Source: a virus. From it: a stretch of 32,210 nucleotides of DNA. Within the stretch, counting starts at the first letter, position 1, and each line of letters begins with the position of its first letter. A model generated the notes under the pieces. That model searched no databases, had not been told where the DNA came from, and was given only the letters and a program-made list of their open reading frames with translations. The translations under genes and the position numbers were made by a program. This document shows, one piece after another, positions 1,600 through 24,828 of the stretch. The stretch lies in UHGV virus genome UHGV-0152653; one strand, written 5' to 3'.

Positions 1600-2256
1600 C
1601 TATTTAACATACTTGACTGTTAAACTTATAATTTTACCAATTATTTCAATGTCTTCTATCTTGCATTCGAAGGCTCTGTTTCCACCCTCGACGAAGATTC
1701 TTCCACCGGGTAAACGAGTAATGTCACGGATCGTTATTTCGCCATCAATACTTATTACCCATTTACCATCACGTATATCATCAAATTCTTTATCACAAAT
1801 AAATTCAGAATTGTTATCTGTGATGACAAAAGGTTTTTTTAACGTAGAGGGTAGAAATTCCTTATCAAAAATATAAAAACCGTCTTTCTGCAATGCTCCA
1901 TCAGACAATAAATATTTTTCTACTTCTATAGTATTTGTATTTGCTGATGCTTGCTTTGAACCATGCCCTGTTGTTAGCCAATTAAGCGAGGTGCCCGTTT
2001 CAAGGGCGCACTGGATTACCCAATCTGCTGGAAAAATATCACGCATATAGCGCGTTGCCATGGTGCTCTTAGAAACACCTAAATGATCACAGAGAGCCTG
2101 ACGGGTACCGAACCCATATGCTTCAACTAAACGTTCTATGGCTTTCTTACCGCCGCTATTGAAATCCACAAGTCCTCCAAAGAAATCCAAAATTCGTTGA
2201 CAGATTCCAAAAGCGATCTTAAAGTTGAACCAGAAGTGTTCTTTTGGAGCCTTCAC
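1600..2256 (-). CDS. cI: CI-like immunity repressor (HTH)
   Basis: Position and orientation (divergent from apl, upstream of int); helix-turn-helix segment LGVSKSTMATRYMRD...CALETGTSLNWL; GTG start at 2256 with no clear RBS, so the start is uncertain. Confidence 0.65.
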   Translation of the reverse strand: MKAPKEHFWFNFKIAFGICQRILDFFGGLVDFNSGGKKAIERLVEAYGFGTRQALCDHLGVSKSTMATRYMRDIFPADWVIQCALETGTSLNWLTTGHGSKQASANTNTIEVEKYLLSDGALQKDGFYIFDKEFLPSTLKKPFVITDNNSEFICDKEFDDIRDGKWVISIDGEITIRDITRLPGGRIFVEGGNRAFECKIEDIEIIGKIISLTVKYVK

Positions 2257-4383: not shown

Positions 4384-5237
4384 GCACCATCCTGAAATGG
4401 GCGGGAAATAAAACCGCCATAATGTCCGAACTGAAAAAGCATCTTCCTGCTGGCCCGCGACTGGTTGAACCTTTCGCGGGTTCCTGTGCAGTGATGATGG
4501 AGACGGATTACCCCAGCTATCTTGTTGCGGATATTAATCCTGATTTAATCAACCTCTATAAAAAGGTTGCTGCTGATTGTGAGGCGTTTATATCTCGTGC
4601 CAGAGCTTTATTTGAGGAAGCAAACAGGGAGGTGGCTTATTACAACATAAGGCAGGAGTTTAATTACTCCACTGAAATTACTGATTTCATGAAAGCGGTA
4701 TATTTTCTGTATCTCAATCGTCATGGTTACCGTGGGTTATGTCGCTATAACAAGAGCGGGTATTTCAACATTCCCTACGGTAATTATAAAAATCCGTATT
4801 TCCCTGAAAAAGAAATTCGCGCATTTGCAGAGAAAGCCCAGCGGGCAACGTTTATCTGCGCCAGCTTTGATGAAACGCTGGCGATGTTGAAGGCGGGGGA
4901 TGTGGTGTATTGCGATCCGCCGTATGACGGTACGTTTTCCGGCTATCACACTGATGGTTTCACTGAAGATGACCAGTATCACCTGGCATCCGTTCTTGAA
5001 CATCGGTCATCAGAAGGACATCCGGTCATTGTTTCTAACAGTGACACATCCCTGATCCGTTCGCTGTATCGCAATTTTACTCACCACTACATCAAGGCAA
5101 AACGCAGCATCGGTGTGGCAGCTGGTGATAGTAAATCTGCAACAGAAATCATTGCTGTTTCCGGGGCGCGCTGCTGGGTGGGATTTGATCCTTCGCGTGG
5201 CGTAGATAGTTCTGCTGTGTACGAGGTGCGTGTATGA
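4380..5237 (+). CDS. dam: DNA N6-adenine methyltransferase (Dam-like)
   Basis: Motif [10 protein letters not shown] and motif IV DPPY ([10 protein letters not shown]); GGAGGTG RBS before ATG 4380; stop overlaps the gpA start (ATGA). Confidence 0.8.
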
Positions 5238-7618
5238 GTCATGACGATATGAGCAACTCTAGCGGCTTTAACGAGGCCGCTGCATCATTTTCATGGAACG
5301 GCCCGAAAAAGGCCATTAACCCTTATCTGGACCCGGCGGAATTTGCGCCGGAGTCTGCACTTTCAAACCTGATCACTCTGTATGCTGCCGATAACGAGCA
5401 GGAACAACTGCGCCGCGAGGCACTGAGTGAGCAGGTCTGGGAGCGTTATTTCTTTAATGAATCCCGTGATCCTGTCCAGCGCGAAATGGAGCAGGATAAG
5501 CTCATTAGCCGGGCAAAGCTGGCGCATGAGCAGCAGCGTTTTAATCCAGACATGGTCATTCTGGCTGACGTCAACGCCCAGCCTTCCCATATCAGCAAGC
5601 CGCTGATGCAACGTATTGAATACTTCAGCAGTCTGGGCAGGCCAAAGGCTTATTCCCGCTATTTGCGTGAGACGATTAAGCCATGTCTGGAAAGACTGGA
5701 GCATGTACGCGACAGTCAGCTATCCACTTCTTTTCGCTTTATGGCAAGCCATGAAGGGCTGGACGGCCTGCTGATCCTGCCTGAAATGAGTCAGGATCAG
5801 GTAAAACGCCTGTCCACCCTGGTAGCAGCGCATATGAGCATGTGTCTTGAGGTCGCTTGTGGTGATTTGTATGCCACCGATGACGTTAAGCCAGAAGAAA
5901 TCCGCAAGACATGGGAAAAGGTGGCGGCGGAAACCCTGCGACTGGATGTCATACCGCCTGCGTTTGAGCAACTCCGCAGGAAAAGAAACCGCCGTAAACC
6001 CGTGCCCTATGAACTTATTCCGGGTTCGCTGGCGCGTATGTTGTGCGCCGACTGGTGGTATCGGAAATTATGGAAGATGCGTAGCGAATGGCGGGAAGAG
6101 CAGTTGCGTGCTGTTTGCCTGGTCAGCAAAAAAGCATCTCCCTATGTCAGCTATGAAGCCGTGATGCATAAACGTGAGCAGCGCCGTAAGTCGCTGGAGT
6201 TTTTCCGTTCTCATGAACTGGTGAACGAAGACGGCGACACGCTGGATATGGAAGACGTGGTAAACGCCAGCAGCAGCAACCCTGCGCATCGCCGCAATGA
6301 GATGATGGCCTGTGTTAAAGGTCTGGAGCTTATCGCGGAAATGCGCGGTGACTGCGCCGTTTTCTACACCATCACCTGTCCGTCACGTTTCCATTCCACG
6401 CTAAATAACGGCAGGCCAAACCCGACCTGGACCAACGCGACAGTAAGACAAAGCAGCGATTATCTGGTCGGCATGTTTGCTGCATTTCGTAAGGCTATGC
6501 ACAAAGCCGGGTTGCGCTGGTATGGCGTGCGGGTGGCTGAGCCGCATCATGACGGCACAGTTCACTGGCACCTGTTGTGTTTCATGCGCAAAAAAGACCG
6601 CCGCGCCATTACTGCATTGTTGCGTAAGTTTGCCATCCGTGAAGACCGCGAGGAGCTGGGCAATAACACGGGGCCACGCTTTAAGTCTGAGCTGATAAAC
6701 CCGCGCAAAGGAACGCCGACAAGCTACATTGCGAAATATATCAGTAAGAATATTGACGGGCGTGGTCTGGCTGGCGAGATCAGTAAGGAAACGGGTAAAT
6801 CCCTGCGTGATAACGCTGAATACGTTAATGCCTGGGCGTCTCTGCATCGTGTTCAGCAATTCCGCTTCTTTGGCATTCCGGGGCGTCAGGCTTACCGTGA
6901 ACTGCGATTGCTGGCTGGTCAGGCGGCAAGGCAACAGGGGGACAAAAAAGCAGGTGCGCCGGTACTGGATAACCCGCGCCTTGATGCAATCCTGGCTGCT
7001 GCTGATGCTGGTTGTTTTGCCACTTACATCATGAAGCAGGGCGGCGTACTGGTTCCCCGCAAATATCACCTCATCAGAACTGCTTATGAAATTAACGAAG
7101 AGCCGACCGCCTATGGCGATCACGGCATTCGTATTTATGGCATCTGGTCACCCATTGCAGAGGGCAAGATCTGCACTCATGCAGTGAAGTGGAAAATGGT
7201 TCGTAAAGCCGTTGACGTTCAGGAGGCGGTAGCCGACCAGGGCGCTTGCGCCCCTTGGACTCGTGGCAATAACTGTCCCCCTGTTGAAAATTTGAACCAA
7301 TCAGGGGGCGATTTACCAGAAGCCAGTGGGCCGGAGTCGCTGCCGGATCTTCATAATCTGAGCGCGAAGGAACGACGGGAGCTGACGGCGCGGCTGAGAT
7401 TGGTAAAACCTAAGCGGCGGAAAGGGTACAAACAGCAGATTAGCAATCATCAGCGCCAGCAGCTTGATGCTGAACTGAGGTCTAGGGGGTTCGATGCGAG
7501 TGATACCGAGGTGGATCTGCTTTTGCGTGGTGGCAGTATCCCGTCCGGGGCCGGGCTGCGTTTGTTCTATCGAAACCAGCGCCTGCAGGAAGATGATAAA
7601 TGGCGGCAGTGGTACTAA
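5234..7618 (+). CDS. A: Replication initiation endonuclease gpA (rolling-circle, HUH)
   Basis: 794 aa; HUH motif in [10 protein letters not shown] and paired-Tyr motif YIAKYISK; position as in P2/186. Confidence 0.85.
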
Positions 7619-7652
7619 TGTGAGAGTATTTTATATTCATATTCAAAAATGC

Positions 7653-7682
7653 CAGCCTAACAAATCAGGCTGACATTTTTTT
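7653..7682. terminator. Bidirectional rho-independent terminator between gpA and the convergent two-gene cargo operon
   Basis: Stem CAGCCT (7653-7658) and AGGCTG (7667-7672) with 8-nt loop, flanked by AAAAA upstream and TTTTTTT downstream. Confidence 0.55.
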
Positions 7683-7689
7683 ACTTACT

Positions 7690-8148
7690 CTATTTAGTTT
7701 TTTCAATCATAGTGCTTTCGGCTTTTGAATATACACTATTAATAGTGGTGATTTTTGTAGTTAATGCTATACAAACTAGACTCAGAAGTAAGACACCAAT
7801 TGATATTGTATTGTTGCTGAGTATTATATGTAGACAAATAGAATAAATTGCAACGATGACTATTGCTACGAAAACAAAGATTGCCATTAAATTATGTGCT
7901 TTGATGTAGTCCTCAGGGGTTAATATGTAGCTTATGTTTATGATTATAAATAAAATTAAAAATGCTCCCCCAATCCATTTGGGTAGGGCTGTTTCTTTTT
8001 TTGATACTGCAGGTGTGGTTCTTGGGATCGATTCTACGAAGGATTTAAGATTTCCCATGTCAGTATTGTTTAATGCTGCACTTTCTGCTTCGAATTTTGA
8101 AACAGTGCCATCAGGAAGGGTTGTAGTCCAGCTTATTTTTCCTGTCAT
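7690..8148 (-). CDS. Small membrane protein (152 aa, three predicted TM helices); candidate effector of a two-gene cargo system
   Basis: N-terminal ~55 aa hydrophilic, then three hydrophobic segments (WIGGAFLILFIIINISYIL, LMAIFVFVAIVIVAIYSICLHIIL, ISIGVLLLSLVCIALTT); ATG overlaps the stop of the upstream gene (ATGA); AT-rich by eye. Confidence 0.55.
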   Translation of the reverse strand: MTGKISWTTTLPDGTVSKFEAESAALNNTDMGNLKSFVESIPRTTPAVSKKETALPKWIGGAFLILFIIINISYILTPEDYIKAHNLMAIFVFVAIVIVAIYSICLHIILSNNTISIGVLLLSLVCIALTTKITTINSVYSKAESTMIEKTK

Positions 8149-8519
8149 ACAACATCCCTTATTCTGAATATTCTATTAAAATCAATATCAACAGCAGAGT
8201 TCGACCACTCACTCTTTTGATTATCTTTAATTAGAATTGCTTTGTTCTCGTCAAAGATTATATTTGTACCACTAAACTCAATATGAGATAGGTCTCCTCT
8301 AAATATTTTTTGCTCAACGCTTTTGAATGCATCTTTTAATGATGCACACTCTTTTCTGAATAATGGTTTGGGGCTGTAAGTCCCTAAGTTTATAACTATT
8401 ACGCCACTACCATCTTTAGCAGGGTGAATGGAGAAAGATAGCGCTAATCCGTGATAGTGGGATTGTATTTTCTTCATTAATTTACGAACGTAATCATCAT
8501 ACCGCTTTCTATATATCAT
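8145..8519 (-). CDS. Hypothetical soluble protein (124 aa); upstream partner of the membrane protein
   Basis: ORF with 4-bp overlap onto the downstream gene; no recognisable motif; AT-rich; weak RBS, so the start is uncertain. Confidence 0.5.
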   Translation of the reverse strand: MIYRKRYDDYVRKLMKKIQSHYHGLALSFSIHPAKDGSGVIVINLGTYSPKPLFRKECASLKDAFKSVEQKIFRGDLSHIEFSGTNIIFDENKAILIKDNQKSEWSNSAVDIDFNRIFRIRDVV

Positions 8520-8683
8520 TTTTTTCTTAATGGTTAGTTGTTTTTCGTATATTACAATACTAATAAATATATTGTCGATTCAAATAAAACGTTGTAGCCA
8601 AGCGGAAGAATTTTAGTTTACGGATGGTTGTTTTTTGATCTCCATAGCCGAAGGCAATCTGAACTATAGTGATCATAAAAGTG

Positions 8684-8727
8684 TTTACATTCATGGAACT
8701 ACGCATATACTGTATATGTGTACAGTG
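8684..8727 (+). promoter_or_regulatory. SOS-regulated promoter with LexA operator
   Basis: -35 TTTACA (8684-8689), 16-nt spacer, -10 TATACT (8706-8711); LexA box TACTGTATATGTGTACAGTG (8708-8727), CTGT-N8-ACAG and 17/20 to consensus, overlapping the -10. Confidence 0.7.
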
Positions 8728-8757
8728 CTTTCTGTGTGTTTGGTGATAGGAGGGAAG

Positions 8758-8946
8758 ATGCAAGACTATTTTTTGGAGTCGTTGAAGCTCCAGCGCATTG
8801 ATTTTTTTGTCAAGCTTGTGGCGGCTAGTGAGTGTGATGATGAAGAGAAGCGACTGGCTATCCAGTGGGTTTCTGAGTTAACGGATGAGCTGATGGCAAA
8901 GATTCGTGCTCATGAATACAACCGCTCAATGGATCTTCCCAGTTAA
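8758..8946 (+). CDS. Hypothetical SOS-controlled protein (62 aa); candidate antirepressor module (positional equivalent of 186 tum)
   Basis: First ATG downstream of the LexA-box promoter with AGGAGGG RBS; acidic small protein; function assigned by position only. Confidence 0.45.
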   Translation: MQDYFLESLKLQRIDFFVKLVAASECDDEEKRLAIQWVSELTDELMAKIRAHEYNRSMDLPS

Positions 8947-9024
8947 CAGCAGGAACGTTGCTGGCGTGAGAACTAGCTTCTTACGTCAGCAAGGTTAAAC
9001 AACGAGTACAACGAGGCGTTAGCC

Positions 9025-9291
9025 ATGGGTAAATCCAACAGCAAATTCCAGACCGTTTATGAGGGGCAGGCGCTTGAACGTGACGAACTTGGCGGATGGG
9101 TTTTGTTTCAGCGTCGTGTAGAGTATGGCGGCAAGTACTGGATGGGAATAACCATGGATGATGTGTTTTTGTTTGGCTCCGATCATCCTGTATCAGGTAG
9201 TGAGGCGATGGTCTTCATCATTGATTATGAGGGCGAGCAGCTCAGACGGTCTTTACCCGTTGGATACACCCCACAAATGCCGCTTTTCTGA
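9025..9291 (+). CDS. Hypothetical SOS-controlled protein (88 aa)
   Basis: Second ORF of the same transcription unit, followed by a terminator at 9359-9384. Confidence 0.45.
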   Translation: MGKSNSKFQTVYEGQALERDELGGWVLFQRRVEYGGKYWMGITMDDVFLFGSDHPVSGSEAMVFIIDYEGEQLRRSLPVGYTPQMPLF

Positions 9292-9358
9292 CAACCGGCT
9301 GGGTGCATGTCTATGCTGCATGAGATCGCATGATCGTTTGAGGATCGTTTTCGCTGAG

Positions 9359-9384
9359 GCCCGCCAGAACTGGCGGGCTTTTGC
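9359..9384 (+). terminator. Rho-independent terminator
   Basis: GCCCGCCAG-aa-CTGGCGGGC perfect 9-bp stem followed by TTTTGC. Confidence 0.55.
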
Positions 9385-9427
9385 TTATGTCATGCAGGTG
9401 CATGAAAATCGCTCCATAAAGCGGGCA

Positions 9428-9446
9428 GGCGTGGCGGGGATACGAG
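9428..9446. other. cos: cos-like element (candidate cohesive-end site)
   Basis: GGCGTGGCGGGGATACGAG resembles the P2/186 19-nt cohesive end as I recall it (GGCGAGGCGGGGAAAGCAC); lies in the region next to the portal-terminase genes where cos is expected; from memory, not verified. Confidence 0.3.
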
Positions 9447-9577
9447 CGCGCGCTGGGAGGTATAAGAATGAAGTACAATTAACTTCACTTTGTTGAGTAA
9501 AATGCTATAAGAATAATGCAAATTATTGAGTCCCATTAGTTCAAAACTTAGGGATATCTTATGTGAAAGGAGGTTAT

Positions 9578-11263
9578 ATGTTAGATAAATTGATTTTTAA
9601 TTCAGGAAGTAATCCAACATCTAAATCTTCATTATCGGTTGACTTGACTCCATTGACAATTTTTGTGGGGCCGAATAATAGTGGTAAATCTAGAGCTTTA
9701 ATCGATATAGAAAATCAACTGACAACCCGAAATGCAGCGCAGGGAGAAGTAATAAAACAGATATTAATCAAACCACTTTCTGAGGATGAAGCAAAAAAGG
9801 AAATTGAATCTTTACAAGTTGAGCCAAACCAGGATGAAAAGCATGCGGGGCATGTTGTTTTATCTAGGCTAAACCTCCGTGGTGAAGGAATATCTAGGAT
9901 TCTAGTGTATTTGGATGGAATGTTAAGAGAATTCCAGCAACCCAATGAATTAAATCGGGAGCATCTATATCAATATTACTCGTTGCTGACTCTAAGGTTG
10001 GATGGTAGAAGTCGACTTTCCTTAACTTCAAGTCAAGGTTCATCCGATTTACAAGGAGAACCTACGAATAACCTTTCATTTCTTTTTAAAAATAATAAAG
10101 CAAGGATGGAGCTAAGAGATATCGTTTTTGATGCTTTCGGGAAGTATCTTGTTATTGATCCAACAAATATAGGTTATCTTAGAATTCGTCTTTCTGAGCG
10201 CGCTCCTGAGACTGAACAAGAAGAAAGAGGTTGGGATGAAAAGTCAGTGCTTTTTCATTCAAAAGCGTCATTGATTACAGAGGCTAGCGATGGTGTTAAT
10301 GCTTTTGTTGGGATGATGATTTCGCTGATAGTTGGCTCACCAAAGGTGACTCTAATTGATGAGCCGGAAGCTTTTTTACATCCATCCTTATGCTCAAAGT
10401 TAGGAAAGGAAATATCTAGGATTAGTGCTCATAGTAATAAAAATGTGTTTATTTCAACGCATAGCGCTAATTTTTTAATGGGTTGTGTTCAAGGTAAAGT
10501 GCCATTGAATATAGTTAGGCTTACTTTTGATGGTAAATCTGGTACGTCTAGATTACTAACAAAGGAACAATTGACGCCGCTCATGAGAAATCCGTTATTA
10601 AGATCTATTGGTGTGCTAAACGCATTGTTTTATAATTACGTTGTCGTTACTGAAGCGGATGCAGATAGGGCATTTTATCAAGAGATTAATGAGCGCTTAT
10701 TGGCTGCTGGAGATCCTCGGGGTATTGAGGGATGCCTGTTTTTGAATGCTCAAAACAAACAAACTGTTTGGGATATAGTAAAACCCCTTCGTGAGCTAGG
10801 TATTCCCTGCGTTGGAGTGGTAGATATCGATATATTGAAGGAGGGAGGAGTTGTATGGAAAAAACCAATGCTTGGAGCTTTTTTTCCAGAAATGAAGCAT
10901 GAAACTTTAGGTTTGGAAAGACAAAAGCTTTTTCAAGCCTTCAAAAATACGAATAAAAATATGAAGACAGATGGGGGCCTCTCCTTGTTATCGGGTTCAG
11001 ATAAAACCGCCTGCTCTGAGTTTTTTAAATCCCTTTCAGATTATGGGGTTTTTGTCGTTCCAACGGGCGAGATCGAGTCTTGGTTGCAAAATCTTGAAAT
11101 AGGTCGAGGAAAGAATACTTGGTTAACAAGTATTTTCGAGAAGATGGGGGATGATCCTAATGATGAATCATATGTGAAGCCATCTGAAGGTGATGTTTGG
11201 GATTTTATTGGGAATATAAAGCACTGGTTGGTTAACCCTGAAAGGAAGGGTATTCCCGAGTGA
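9578..11263 (+). CDS. OLD-family ABC ATPase with C-terminal TOPRIM-like nuclease domain (P2 Old-like, class 1 OLD-type candidate defence protein)
   Basis: Walker A GPNNSGKS near the N-terminus; Walker B VTLIDEPEAF about 220 aa later (long insert typical of SMC/OLD ATPases); H-loop-like STHSANF; C-terminal VVVTEADAD and VGVVDIDIL resemble TOPRIM Glu and DxD motifs; AAAGGAGG RBS before ATG 9578; AT-rich island. Confidence 0.6.
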   Translation: MLDKLIFNSGSNPTSKSSLSVDLTPLTIFVGPNNSGKSRALIDIENQLTTRNAAQGEVIKQILIKPLSEDEAKKEIESLQVEPNQDEKHAGHVVLSRLNLRGEGISRILVYLDGMLREFQQPNELNREHLYQYYSLLTLRLDGRSRLSLTSSQGSSDLQGEPTNNLSFLFKNNKARMELRDIVFDAFGKYLVIDPTNIGYLRIRLSERAPETEQEERGWDEKSVLFHSKASLITEASDGVNAFVGMMISLIVGSPKVTLIDEPEAFLHPSLCSKLGKEISRISAHSNKNVFISTHSANFLMGCVQGKVPLNIVRLTFDGKSGTSRLLTKEQLTPLMRNPLLRSIGVLNALFYNYVVVTEADADRAFYQEINERLLAAGDPRGIEGCLFLNAQNKQTVWDIVKPLRELGIPCVGVVDIDILKEGGVVWKKPMLGAFFPEMKHETLGLERQKLFQAFKNTNKNMKTDGGLSLLSGSDKTACSEFFKSLSDYGVFVVPTGEIESWLQNLEIGRGKNTWLTSIFEKMGDDPNDESYVKPSEGDVWDFIGNIKHWLVNPERKGIPE

Positions 11264-14094: not shown

Positions 14095-14140
14095 GGCACA
14101 AACCTACAGCCTTGAATGAAGGCTTTCCCCGCCTGCGGTT

Positions 14141-14158
14141 TGTGTGGTTGTCGGTACA
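14141..14158. promoter_or_regulatory. Ogr/B-type late activator site (TGT-N12-ACA) in the divergent P/O late promoter region
   Basis: TGTGTGGTTGTCGGTACA between the P and O starts, about 80 bp upstream of the O ATG. Confidence 0.5.
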
Positions 14159-14236
14159 AATACCGTGCATTGTTTCACTGCCCCCATCACCGCAACCATA
14201 AGGCTCCAGTAAGTTTTTTCTAACGGAGCACGGCTC

Positions 14237-15070
14237 ATGACAGTGAAAACAAAGCGTTTTCGCATCGGGGTGGAAGGTGCCACCACCGACGGACGCGAAA
14301 TCCAGCGTGAATGGCTGGAACAGATGGCAGCCAGCTACAACCCGGCGGTGTATACCGCGCTGATTAACCTTGAGCACATCAAGTCTTATCTGCCGGACAG
14401 CACCTTTAACCGTTACGGCAAGGTGACGGCGCTGTTTGCCGAAGAAATCACGGAAGGTCCGCTGGCAGGCAAGATGGCGCTGTATGCCGACGTTGAGCCA
14501 ACGGAATCCCTGGTGGAGCTGGTGAAAAAAGGCCAGAAATTATTCACCTCTATGGAAGTCAGCCCGAAGTTCGCTGATACGGGCAAAGCCTACCTGGTCG
14601 GCCTGGCTGCCACTGATGACCCTGCCAGTCTGGGTACGGAAATGCTGACATTCAGCGCCAGTGCAGCTCATAACCCGCTGGCAAACCGCAAGCAGAATCC
14701 TGCAAATCTCTTTACCGCTGCAGAGGAAACGGTGATCGAACTGGAAGAAATCCAGGATGACAAACCGTCCCTGTTTGCCCGTGTCACGGCGTTGTTTACC
14801 AAAAAAGAACAGTCCGATGACGCCCGGTTCTCTGATGTGCATAAGGCCGTGGAGCTGGTCGCTACTGAGCAGCAGAACCTGAGCGCACGCACCGAAAAAT
14901 CCCTGTCTGAGCAGGAAGAACGCCTGTCTGAACTGGAGACTGCTCTGCAGGCACAGCAAACCGCCTTTAACGAACTGGTGAATAAGCTGAGTCATGAAGA
15001 CAGCCGCCAGGACTACCGCCAGCGTGCAACAGGCGGTAACGCCCCCGCTGACACTCTGACCAATTGCTGA
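14237..15070 (+). CDS. O: Capsid scaffolding protein (P2 gpO-like)
   Basis: 277 aa; first gene of the rightward head operon, divergent from P. Confidence 0.85.
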   Translation: MTVKTKRFRIGVEGATTDGREIQREWLEQMAASYNPAVYTALINLEHIKSYLPDSTFNRYGKVTALFAEEITEGPLAGKMALYADVEPTESLVELVKKGQKLFTSMEVSPKFADTGKAYLVGLAATDDPASLGTEMLTFSASAAHNPLANRKQNPANLFTAAEETVIELEEIQDDKPSLFARVTALFTKKEQSDDARFSDVHKAVELVATEQQNLSARTEKSLSEQEERLSELETALQAQQTAFNELVNKLSHEDSRQDYRQRATGGNAPADTLTNC

Positions 15071-18653: not shown

Positions 18654-19078
18654 ACCGGTTGCTGCTGGTTGTGCTGGCGTTATTACTGGCGGCGCTGGGC
18701 TGGCAGACGTGGCGGCTGGCTGATGCCAGCCAGACCATCAGCACGCAGGCAGACGAGCTTCGGAGCAAAAGCCAGGCACTGGCAAAGAGCAACAGCCAGC
18801 TTATCAGCCTGTCCATTCTGACAGAAACCAACAACCGGGAGCAGGCGCGACTCTATGCCAACGCAGAACAGACCAGCGCACTACTGAGACAACGACAACA
18901 CCGGATTGAGGAACTGAAACGTGAGAACGAGGATTTACGCCGCTGGGCTGATACTCCTTTGCCTGCTGACATTATCCGGCTGCGGGAACGTCCGGCACTC
19001 ACCGGAGGTGCAGCTTACCGTCAGTGGTTGTCCGCGAGTGACGCCGTGTCGGCTGGAGCAGGCAGCGCCGCGCACTAA
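18650..19078 (+). CDS. lysB: i-spanin (Rz/LysB-like)
   Basis: N-terminal TM helix, then coiled-coil-like region rich in Q/E/R/L. Confidence 0.75.
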   Translation: MNRLLLVVLALLLAALGWQTWRLADASQTISTQADELRSKSQALAKSNSQLISLSILTETNNREQARLYANAEQTSALLRQRQHRIEELKRENEDLRRWADTPLPADIIRLRERPALTGGAAYRQWLSASDAVSAGAGSAAH

Positions 19079-24756: not shown

Positions 24757-24828
24757 ATAAGAGCAATGAATCTCCCTGAATCAGCATTATTTTGATTATT
24801 CCTGCAAGCGGACAAATACCGTCATTTT

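Follow-up and report, generated by a model that had tools for sequence, protein, structure and literature searches.

Organisation of the region between gpA and cos

The window analysed here, a stretch of 32,210 nucleotides (UHGV virus genome UHGV-0152653), is a P2/186-like (Peduoviridae) prophage in which an integrase gene is followed by a 186-type CI repressor gene, an Apl/Cox-sized ORF, CII (Pfam CP76), Dam, the replication endonuclease gpA (5234-7618) and then the region studied. Reading on from gpA, one first meets two overlapping cargo genes on the minus strand (7690-8148 and 8145-8519, the latter starting at 8519 or, according to the PGAP annotation of EC11, where the sequence is identical, at 8477). 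These are followed on the plus strand by a candidate SOS promoter (8684-8711), a predicted LexA operator (8708-8727) and two small genes, a 62-aa ORF1 (8758-8946) and an 88-aa ORF2 (9025-9291), which end at an intrinsic terminator (9356-9387). Past this operon, and past cos, lies a gene for an OLD-like ATPase/TOPRIM protein (9563-11263), followed by a portal gene on the minus strand. At least 15 complete E. coli chromosomes contain the sequence from 7600 to 9600 with 100% identity, and all four small genes carry the label 'hypothetical protein' there; EC11 and MIN10 are two strains with the identical segment. No tRNA genes were found in the window, and an Rfam scan of 8300-9700 returned no match above chance.

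Both plus-strand ORFs, which an earlier note on this DNA had read with ribosome-binding sites at the same coordinates, do carry Shine-Dalgarno sequences: GGAGGG at 8749-8754, 4 nt before the ATG of ORF1, and GAGG at 9013-9016, 8 nt before the ATG of ORF2. We rejected a longer, 103-aa reading of ORF1 from a TTG at 8635; it would cross the promoter and operator, conservation begins at MQDYF, and the ribosome-binding site and a published deletion (see below) both point to the ATG at 8758. Between the two cistrons, the plus strand can form a long hairpin that lacks a U-tract (8954-8996; -32.3 kcal/mol, z = -4.3). It may serve in processing or attenuation, in loose analogy to t95a of phage 186, and could limit expression of ORF2.

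The terminator, which the earlier note had placed at 9359-9384, consists of a GC-rich stem (9356-9366/9371-9381) followed by UUUUGCUU; it folds at -24.4 kcal/mol (z = -3.8) and is kept in Cartapus. The predicted cos site spans 9412-9446. Aligned with the window, the genomes of 186 and PSP3 both run at their right ends up to 9427, where they stop at …CCATAAAGCGGGCA; the operon therefore ends just short of cos. Directly past 9427 the window reads GGCGTGGCGGGG…, which resembles a 186-type cohesive end; the 19-nt segment GGCGTGGCGGGGATACGAG at 9428-9446 is a candidate cohesive end, judged by the cos sequences of 186 and P2. The operon is thus located between gpA, which ends at 7618, and cos, the site occupied in 186 by the p95/tum SOS operon.

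A near-consensus LexA box overlaps the promoter

Of the 20 positions of the candidate operator, TACTGTATATGTGTACAGTG, 17 agree with the E. coli LexA consensus TACTGTATATATATACAGTA, and its CTGT-N8-ACAG core is perfect. It overlaps the -10 element as well as the point where transcription should start. No second box of this kind turns up in the 32-kb window when up to three mismatches are allowed, and not one of 100 dinucleotide-preserving shuffles yielded one. If only CTGT-N8-ACAG is asked for, there is a single further match, at 18809, and its spacer is non-AT. The promoter itself comprises a -35 element TTTACA (8684-8689), a 16-nt spacer and a -10 element TATACT (8706-8711); it agrees with the consensus at 10 of 12 positions and is the highest-ranking sigma-70-like site within 8400-9600. 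Box and promoter had both been proposed on first reading, and both are present where they had been placed.

Comparison with relatives lends this arrangement further weight. The promoter aligns with those of Fels-2, Cartapus, HS and HZ13 as well as with p95 of 186, and a LexA box is equivalently placed 5' of the tum gene in seven relatives (186, PSP3, Fels-2, HS, Cartapus, HZ13 and ev015). PSP3 also shares the combination of promoter and box, and the public record of 186 annotates the p95 promoter together with its own box as a LexA site. One difference concerns the leader, which is 11-16 nt shorter in the window than in the relatives. The missing 16-nt segment bears an extra half-site in the relatives, so that the strength of regulation may differ. 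On this evidence LexA would be expected to bind at 8708-8727.

ORF1 is predicted to be a TumA-type antirepressor

ORF1 matches the protein family phrog_698 over its full length (E 3e-36) and is 87-90% identical to STM2728 of Fels-2, gp44 of Cartapus and ECHS_RS04495 of E. coli HS (89% for HS), each of which is encoded directly after gpA and downstream of a LexA box. Searches of Pfam, NCBIfam and PADLOC gave no match for ORF1, ORF2 or either cargo protein, and proteins of the ORF1 type are called 'hypothetical protein' in E. coli genomes and 'levan regulatory protein' in UniRef.

How does ORF1 relate to Tum of phage 186? Pairwise BLASTP of ORF1 against 186 Tum and PSP3 TumA detected no similarity, which explains why a resemblance to Tum was missed at first reading. 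Three lines of profile and intermediate-sequence evidence nevertheless connect them. First, the N-terminal 44-61 residues of 186 Tum match phrog_1993, phrog_8554 and phrog_698, and ORF1 matches the same three families at the same positions. Second, the two are joined by a chain of BLAST matches, from ORF1 to a protein of phage vB_YenM_324 (E 5e-10) and from there to the N-terminus of 186 Tum (E 6e-14). Third, an hhalign comparison of the Fels-2-type with the 186-type group gives a probability of 96% over residues 1-44, and 86% when the bridging sequence is left out. ORF1 and the N-terminal half of 186 Tum are therefore remotely homologous. The earlier note had seen no obvious likeness to Tum or DinI and had suggested comparing the ORFs with both: its impression stands for pairwise alignment and for DinI, which no profile finds here, and fails for the N-terminus of Tum, to which ORF1 is related at the profile level. 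Its suggestion that the antirepressor might be of a divergent type does not survive, given the close orthology with the Fels-2, Cartapus and HS genes. By sequence, ORF1 is best described as a TumA of the Fels-2/DuoHS type and not as a new type of antirepressor.

This assignment matters in that one of the orthologues has been tested by mutation. DuoHS, a P2-like prophage of E. coli HS, shows no mitomycin C induction in a delta-tum or a lexA(Ind-) mutant (PMC12055606). When we mapped the Phollow primers NHR24 and NHR28 on HS, they joined the ATG at L006:24620 to the TGA at 24806-24808; the delta-tum allele of that study (PMC12055606) thus removes exactly the 62-aa ECHS_RS04495 and leaves the downstream DinI-like gene intact. 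Further background comes from 186 and its relatives. In 186 Tum, an antirepressor and a DinI-like half form one protein, whereas Fels-2 and PSP3 encode the two parts as separate genes (PMC3121763); for PSP3, antirepressor activity is attributed to the upstream gene by itself (PMC3121763, citing a personal communication). As PMC3121763 relates the work of Shearwin et al. (1998), 186 Tum is known biochemically to bind CI and to block operator binding. Fels-2 renders lexA null mutations lethal in LT2, according to the accounts of Bunny et al. (2002) in PMC3121763 and PMC8072944.

The predicted target of TumA is also present. The CI immunity repressor of the window (1600-2169, minus strand; 189 aa; Pfam Phage_CI_repr and Phage_CI_C) matches the structure of 186 CI (2FJR) over its full length (E 1.3e-32) and is 87% identical to the CI of DuoHS. 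An S24 peptidase domain is found in it only below threshold, at 16 bits against a cut-off of 23.3, and we predict that this CI has no autocleavage domain. The module is thus paired with a repressor of the 186 type.

The DinI-like gene has been deleted

Downstream of the tum gene, Fels-2, HS, Cartapus and PSP3 have a gene of the DinI family. The DinI profile (PF06183) matches 186 Tum and Fels-2 TumB; it finds no match in ORF1, in ORF2 or anywhere else in the window, and the structure model of ORF2 shows no match to a DinI-like fold. Cartapus, whose operon runs tumA-dinI-ORF2 homologue, reveals what happened: aligned with it, the window lacks about 240 bp, cleanly removed from the last codons of tumA through the end of dinI. 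The DinI-like gene tumB has thus been lost from the window prophage by clean deletion, and a resemblance to DinI went unnoticed because the gene is gone and not because it has diverged. The deletion also changed the last three residues of TumA, so that the C-terminus reads DLPS in the window, compared with DVIS in the proven HS orthologue.

The layout is rare. Among 5426 complete E. coli genomes, about 1255-1284, or about a quarter, have a gene of the tumA type. Roughly 1083 E. coli genomes have an HS-like tumA together with dinI, and only 20 have tumA and ORF2 without dinI. The same deletion is found in a second lineage, a prophage of E. coli HZ13 with about 90% DNA identity.

Might we then be looking at a decaying remnant, in which the deletion that took dinI also damaged tumA or its regulation and SOS inducibility has been lost? 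The altered last codons of tumA, the shorter leader and the scarcity of the dinI-less layout (20 of about 1255 tumA-bearing E. coli genomes) would all fit. Several observations argue against this scenario, and we regard it as very improbable. Promoter, LexA box and both ORFs with their ribosome-binding sites are undamaged, and the conserved Tum core, residues 1-48, is unaffected by the deletion. In addition, dN/dS between the window and the HZ13 prophage is 0.05 for ORF1 and 0.11 for ORF2. Both genes are under purifying selection, and since the two lineages share the deletion and differ at about 10% of DNA positions, selection has persisted after dinI was lost. Finally, tumA-like genes occur naturally without dinI in other Peduoviridae, and the C-terminal tails of their products are unrelated.

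The last point can be made specific. ENT90, ESSI-2, ESSI2_ev015 and vB_YenM_324 each have a natural tumA-like gene on its own, and loss of dinI is therefore unlikely to abolish antirepression. Taken together with the reported activity of PSP3 TumA alone and with the DuoHS delta-tum phenotype, these relatives indicate that the DinI-like part is probably inessential to antirepression.

ORF2 belongs to a family associated with SOS boxes

ORF2 is a member of the unnamed family phrog_2100 (E 2.4e-19), and public sources hold no informative name for it. An exhaustive HMMER search for relatives recovered 34 representatives at E <= 1e-3, mostly of 56-126 aa; two large proteins (P0006 and P0032) were discarded, having matched through unrelated repeat or low-complexity domains. 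Members of phrog_2100 are about 85 aa long and have in common the motif GGWVFFQR..EYGGGYWLGRT, which ORF2 fits. In an alignment of 29 family members W39 and G41 are invariant and G23, V26, F28, R30, G35 and P55 nearly so. An alignment-based AlphaFold2 model of ORF2, of fairly high confidence (pLDDT 80.7), has four strands and a C-terminal helix; it matched nothing among solved and viral predicted folds, and the family profile found nothing among PDB sequences. ORF2 is not a DinI protein but an unrelated accessory gene.

Homologues of ORF2 occur in several kinds of temperate phage. In Cartapus-type P2-like phages they follow dinI. In P22-like phages such as SE1 they lie 5' of int and of a 116-aa ORF that, judging by size and position, is probably xis. 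Others are found in the SSU5 phage-plasmid group, with SSU5_103 as an example, and in Serratia phage BZS1. Unexpectedly, each of the stand-alone homologues has its own near-consensus LexA box.

We scanned 80 IMG/VR loci (out of 441 IMG/VR relatives), representing 39 distinct proteins and 61 distinct upstream regions, for boxes that match the consensus at 15 or more of 20 positions and contain the CTG and CAG triplets. The gene has its own box in 71 of the 80 loci, ending 13-17 nt before the ATG. There are 23 distinct box sequences, which all contain CTG and CAG, as the scan imposes, and vary in the spacer, and they are overlapped by a conserved TTGACC-N16/17-TATACT promoter. The remaining 390 kb of the 80 loci hold only nine further boxes at the same threshold. 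Eight of the nine loci without an own box are P2-like, with the gene 350-600 nt past the LexA box that follows gpA, and in five of these eight tumA and dinI stand between box and gene. In all, 79 of the 80 loci are linked to an SOS box, either their own or that of a tum operon. This linkage is a regularity found in the present analysis and not a published criterion, and our literature search found no paper describing a LexA-box association of the phrog_2100 family.

The window conforms to the P2-like pattern. The 78-nt spacer between ORF1 and ORF2 contains neither a LexA box nor a promoter-like site of its own; ORF2 lies 317 nt past the box of the tum operon, with no promoter-like site between them, an arrangement also seen in the eight P2-like loci. 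SOS control of ORF2 would therefore come from the tum promoter.

Could ORF2, alone or together with ORF1, be the true antirepressor, replacing the lost DinI/TumB function? That family members almost always come straight after a LexA box (their own in 71 of the 80 loci, that of a tum operon in eight more) is suggestive in this regard, as a cassette of LexA box and small gene is typical of small antirepressors such as SPC32H Ant, 186 Tum and Gifsy GfoA/GftA (PMC3121763). Four observations nonetheless make this improbable. DuoHS, which lacks an ORF2 homologue, relies on its 62-aa tum gene alone for induction. In SE1, which does have a homologue, the c2 repressor is of the S24 type, annotated as LexA family and presumably self-cleaving, and an antirepressor should then be unneeded. 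Neither sequence nor profile comparison relates ORF2 to SPC32H Ant, and its family profile finds no related ORF in N15 from 20000 to 46375, a region in which antC was not separately identified. Finally, Cartapus-type phages keep an ORF2 homologue alongside both tumA and dinI. The more specific idea that ORF2 is SPC32H Ant itself, prompted by similar length and the same LexA architecture, was ruled out by the same sequence and profile comparison. Since ORF2 is unrelated to SPC32H Ant, SE1 c2 is of the S24 type and DuoHS does without ORF2, we treat ORF2 as a co-induced accessory gene.

The fact that its members are nearly always tied to a LexA box, in phage types that are unrelated, does suggest that the ORF2 family has a conserved function during SOS induction, and the family is potentially the only new biology of the operon. 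It is conceivable, if unlikely, that ORF2 is a new effector deployed during SOS: an antirepressor that acts across on co-resident prophages, a modulator of RecA or LexA that replaces DinI, or a takeover or anti-defence factor. If so, phrog_2100 would be a self-contained cassette of LexA-box promoter and gene that moves among P2-like, P22-like, SSU5-like and other temperate phages, and ORF2 would be the sole partner left to TumA since the loss of dinI.

The cargo operon is an insertion upstream of the promoter

The two minus-strand cargo genes make up an AT-rich cassette of about 1 kb (31-37% GC, against 54-57% in gpA). Its insertion site lies between the stop codon of gpA and the native -35 element of the tum promoter, and homology to relatives resumes at about 8676. 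In the relatives this position holds only a gpA-tum spacer of about 150 bp.

On first reading it was thought that the operator lies about 150 bp from the cargo operon and that SOS could also influence cargo expression. The distance needs correcting: the box is in fact 190-230 bp upstream of the cargo start codon. The idea that it places the cargo operon (7690-8519, minus strand) under SOS control as well draws on this proximity and nothing else, and we consider it the least probable of the alternatives weighed here. LexA represses by locally occluding promoters. The window has one LexA box, which overlaps the -10 element of the plus strand, and the sole promoter-like site on the cargo strand (8578..8549) is about 130 bp away from it. 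The cargo, moreover, is an insertion 5' of the native -35 element. SOS control of the cargo operon is thus not supported.

A predicted route from DNA damage to induction

Having considered the parts of the locus separately, we can ask how they would work together. In an undamaged cell, LexA at 8708-8727 would occlude the promoter at 8684-8711. Upon DNA damage, RecA-stimulated self-cleavage of LexA would free the promoter and allow synthesis of a bicistronic transcript of ORF1 and ORF2 that ends at the terminator just before cos; that the two genes are co-transcribed is what their arrangement predicts. TumA, the product of ORF1, would then bind the non-cleavable CI and hold it off its operators, leading to lytic growth. 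The interaction of TumA with CI in this prophage is likewise expected from its relatives. ORF2 would be induced at the same time, as an accessory SOS-linked protein dispensable for induction.

Overall, we consider it likely, with a probability of roughly 0.85 that draws on close orthology, that the region is an SOS (tum) operon in which LexA cleavage leads, by way of TumA, to inactivation of CI. This agrees with the central proposal of the earlier note, a LexA-repressed induction module in the position of 186 tum, which is borne out by the location between gpA and cos, the pairing of box and promoter, and the 186-type CI alongside.

If this reading is right, DNA-damaging antibiotics would mobilise the prophage, together with its OLD-like nuclease and two-gene cassette, via LexA and TumA. 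Because the tumA type is present in about a quarter of complete E. coli genomes and labelled 'hypothetical' there, linking it to DuoHS and 186 Tum would improve annotation. What is new here is the explicit link between this widespread 'hypothetical protein' and Tum, the rare natural variant from which dinI has been deleted, and the SOS-box association of the ORF2 family. The dinI-less variant also offers a ready test of what the DinI-like partner contributes.

Comparison with known systems

The tum operon of the window adds a member to a system that was already known and has lately been validated again. Its closest counterparts are DuoHS ECHS_RS04495 and Fels-2 STM2728, with which it shares the order gpA, LexA-box promoter, 62-aa gene, the high identity of the encoded protein (87-90%) and, in the case of DuoHS, a CI that is 87% identical. 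Unlike them, the window has no DinI-like gene and has ORF2 in its place; it also has a cargo cassette 5' of the promoter, a shorter leader and a single box without the extra half-site.

186 and PSP3 likewise place a LexA-repressed promoter between gene A and cos, direct an antirepressor against a CI of the 186 type and have a terminator ahead of cos. The 146-aa Tum of 186, however, combines the antirepressor domain with a DinI-like one in a single protein, and its gene is followed by orf97, to which ORF2 is unrelated, the two belonging to different PHROGs.

ENT90, ESSI-2, ev015 and YenM_324 resemble the window in having a single small Tum-like gene right after gpA and no dinI, with a LexA box upstream of that gene in three of the four (ESSI-2, ev015 and YenM_324; none was found in ENT90). 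They differ in that their operons have no second gene and in that their proteins are just 29-49% identical to ORF1; these proteins are sequence intermediates between ORF1 and 186 Tum.

Other small LexA-controlled antirepressors are SPC32H Ant, N15 AntC and Gifsy GfoA/GftA; as with ORF1 and the stand-alone homologues of ORF2, a LexA box overlaps the promoter that drives each of them. SPC32H Ant, for example, has 86 aa and a LexA box 17 nt before its ATG, and a sequence relationship between it and ORF1 or ORF2 is undetectable; what it has in common with them is architecture.

LexA boxes in the phrog_2100 family

ORF2 (window 9025-9291), the second gene of the SOS (tum) operon, belongs to the phrog_2100 family, and we surveyed it along with its homologues (comparison loci L007-L009 and L016-L095). 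Members of the family are almost always linked to an SOS box. In 71 of 80 viral loci the gene has a LexA box of its own, which ends 13-17 nt before the ATG and is accompanied by a promoter of the form TTGACC-N16/17-TATACT. A further eight loci are P2-like, the gene lying 350-600 nt downstream of the LexA box that follows the replication gene gpA; in five of these, tumA and a dinI-like gene intervene. We looked for a published description of this linkage in the literature and found none.

In P22-like phages the LexA-box/ORF2-homologue cassette is followed directly, in the same orientation, by a 116-aa ORF, probably xis, and by int. Given this co-oriented position immediately upstream, SOS de-repression might extend transcription into the excision genes as well. 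One such cassette is found in Salmonella phage SE1 (record positions 14107-14968).

The tum operon and its surroundings

Comparing the leader after the LexA box (window 8727-8757) with that of E. coli HS (L006:24578-24619) and of two further comparison loci (L003 and L010), we find that HS, Fels-2, HZ13 and Cartapus have about 16 additional nucleotides 3' of the box, which include a second ACAGTAT half-site. With this segment missing, the window has just one box, and its leader is shorter: box and ATG are 30 nt apart, against 40-46 nt in the relatives. Between ORF1 and ORF2, on the plus strand, lies a very stable 18-bp hairpin (8954-8996; -32 kcal/mol, z = -4.3) without a U-tract, possibly serving in processing or attenuation. 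Cartapus and HZ13 keep part of it, and its counterpart appears different in other tumA-dinI-ORF2 loci. As for ORF1 (8758-8946), its TumA family is named 'Levan regulatory protein (RlsC)' in UniRef and hypothetical at NCBI; the levan name was probably passed on from one annotation to another, overlooking the relationship to Tum.

An AT-rich insertion (7625-8675; 31-37% GC), a cassette of two minus-strand genes (7690-8148 and 8145-8519), separates the gpA stop codon from the tum promoter. One of its two proteins has 124 aa (phrog_18061); the other, of 152 aa, is hydrophobic and probably a membrane protein. Neither has a match in Pfam, NCBIfam or PADLOC. This may be a case of the P2 accessory hotspot carrying a defence or moron cassette.

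A probable cos site lies at 9412-9446: the alignment with the right ends of 186 and PSP3 runs as far as 9427, and the next nucleotides, GGCGTGGCGGGGATACGAG, are a candidate cohesive end of 19 nt. A plus-strand gene lying between cos and the portal gene encodes an OLD-like ATPase/TOPRIM nuclease (9563-11263; PADLOC Old, 1.3e-20; Pfam AAA_15 and OLD-like_TOPRIM; 'ATP-dependent nuclease' in PGAP), its stop codon only 36 nt from that of the portal gene. Whereas old of P2 is located before cos, the OLD-like gene here sits on the left-end side of cos.
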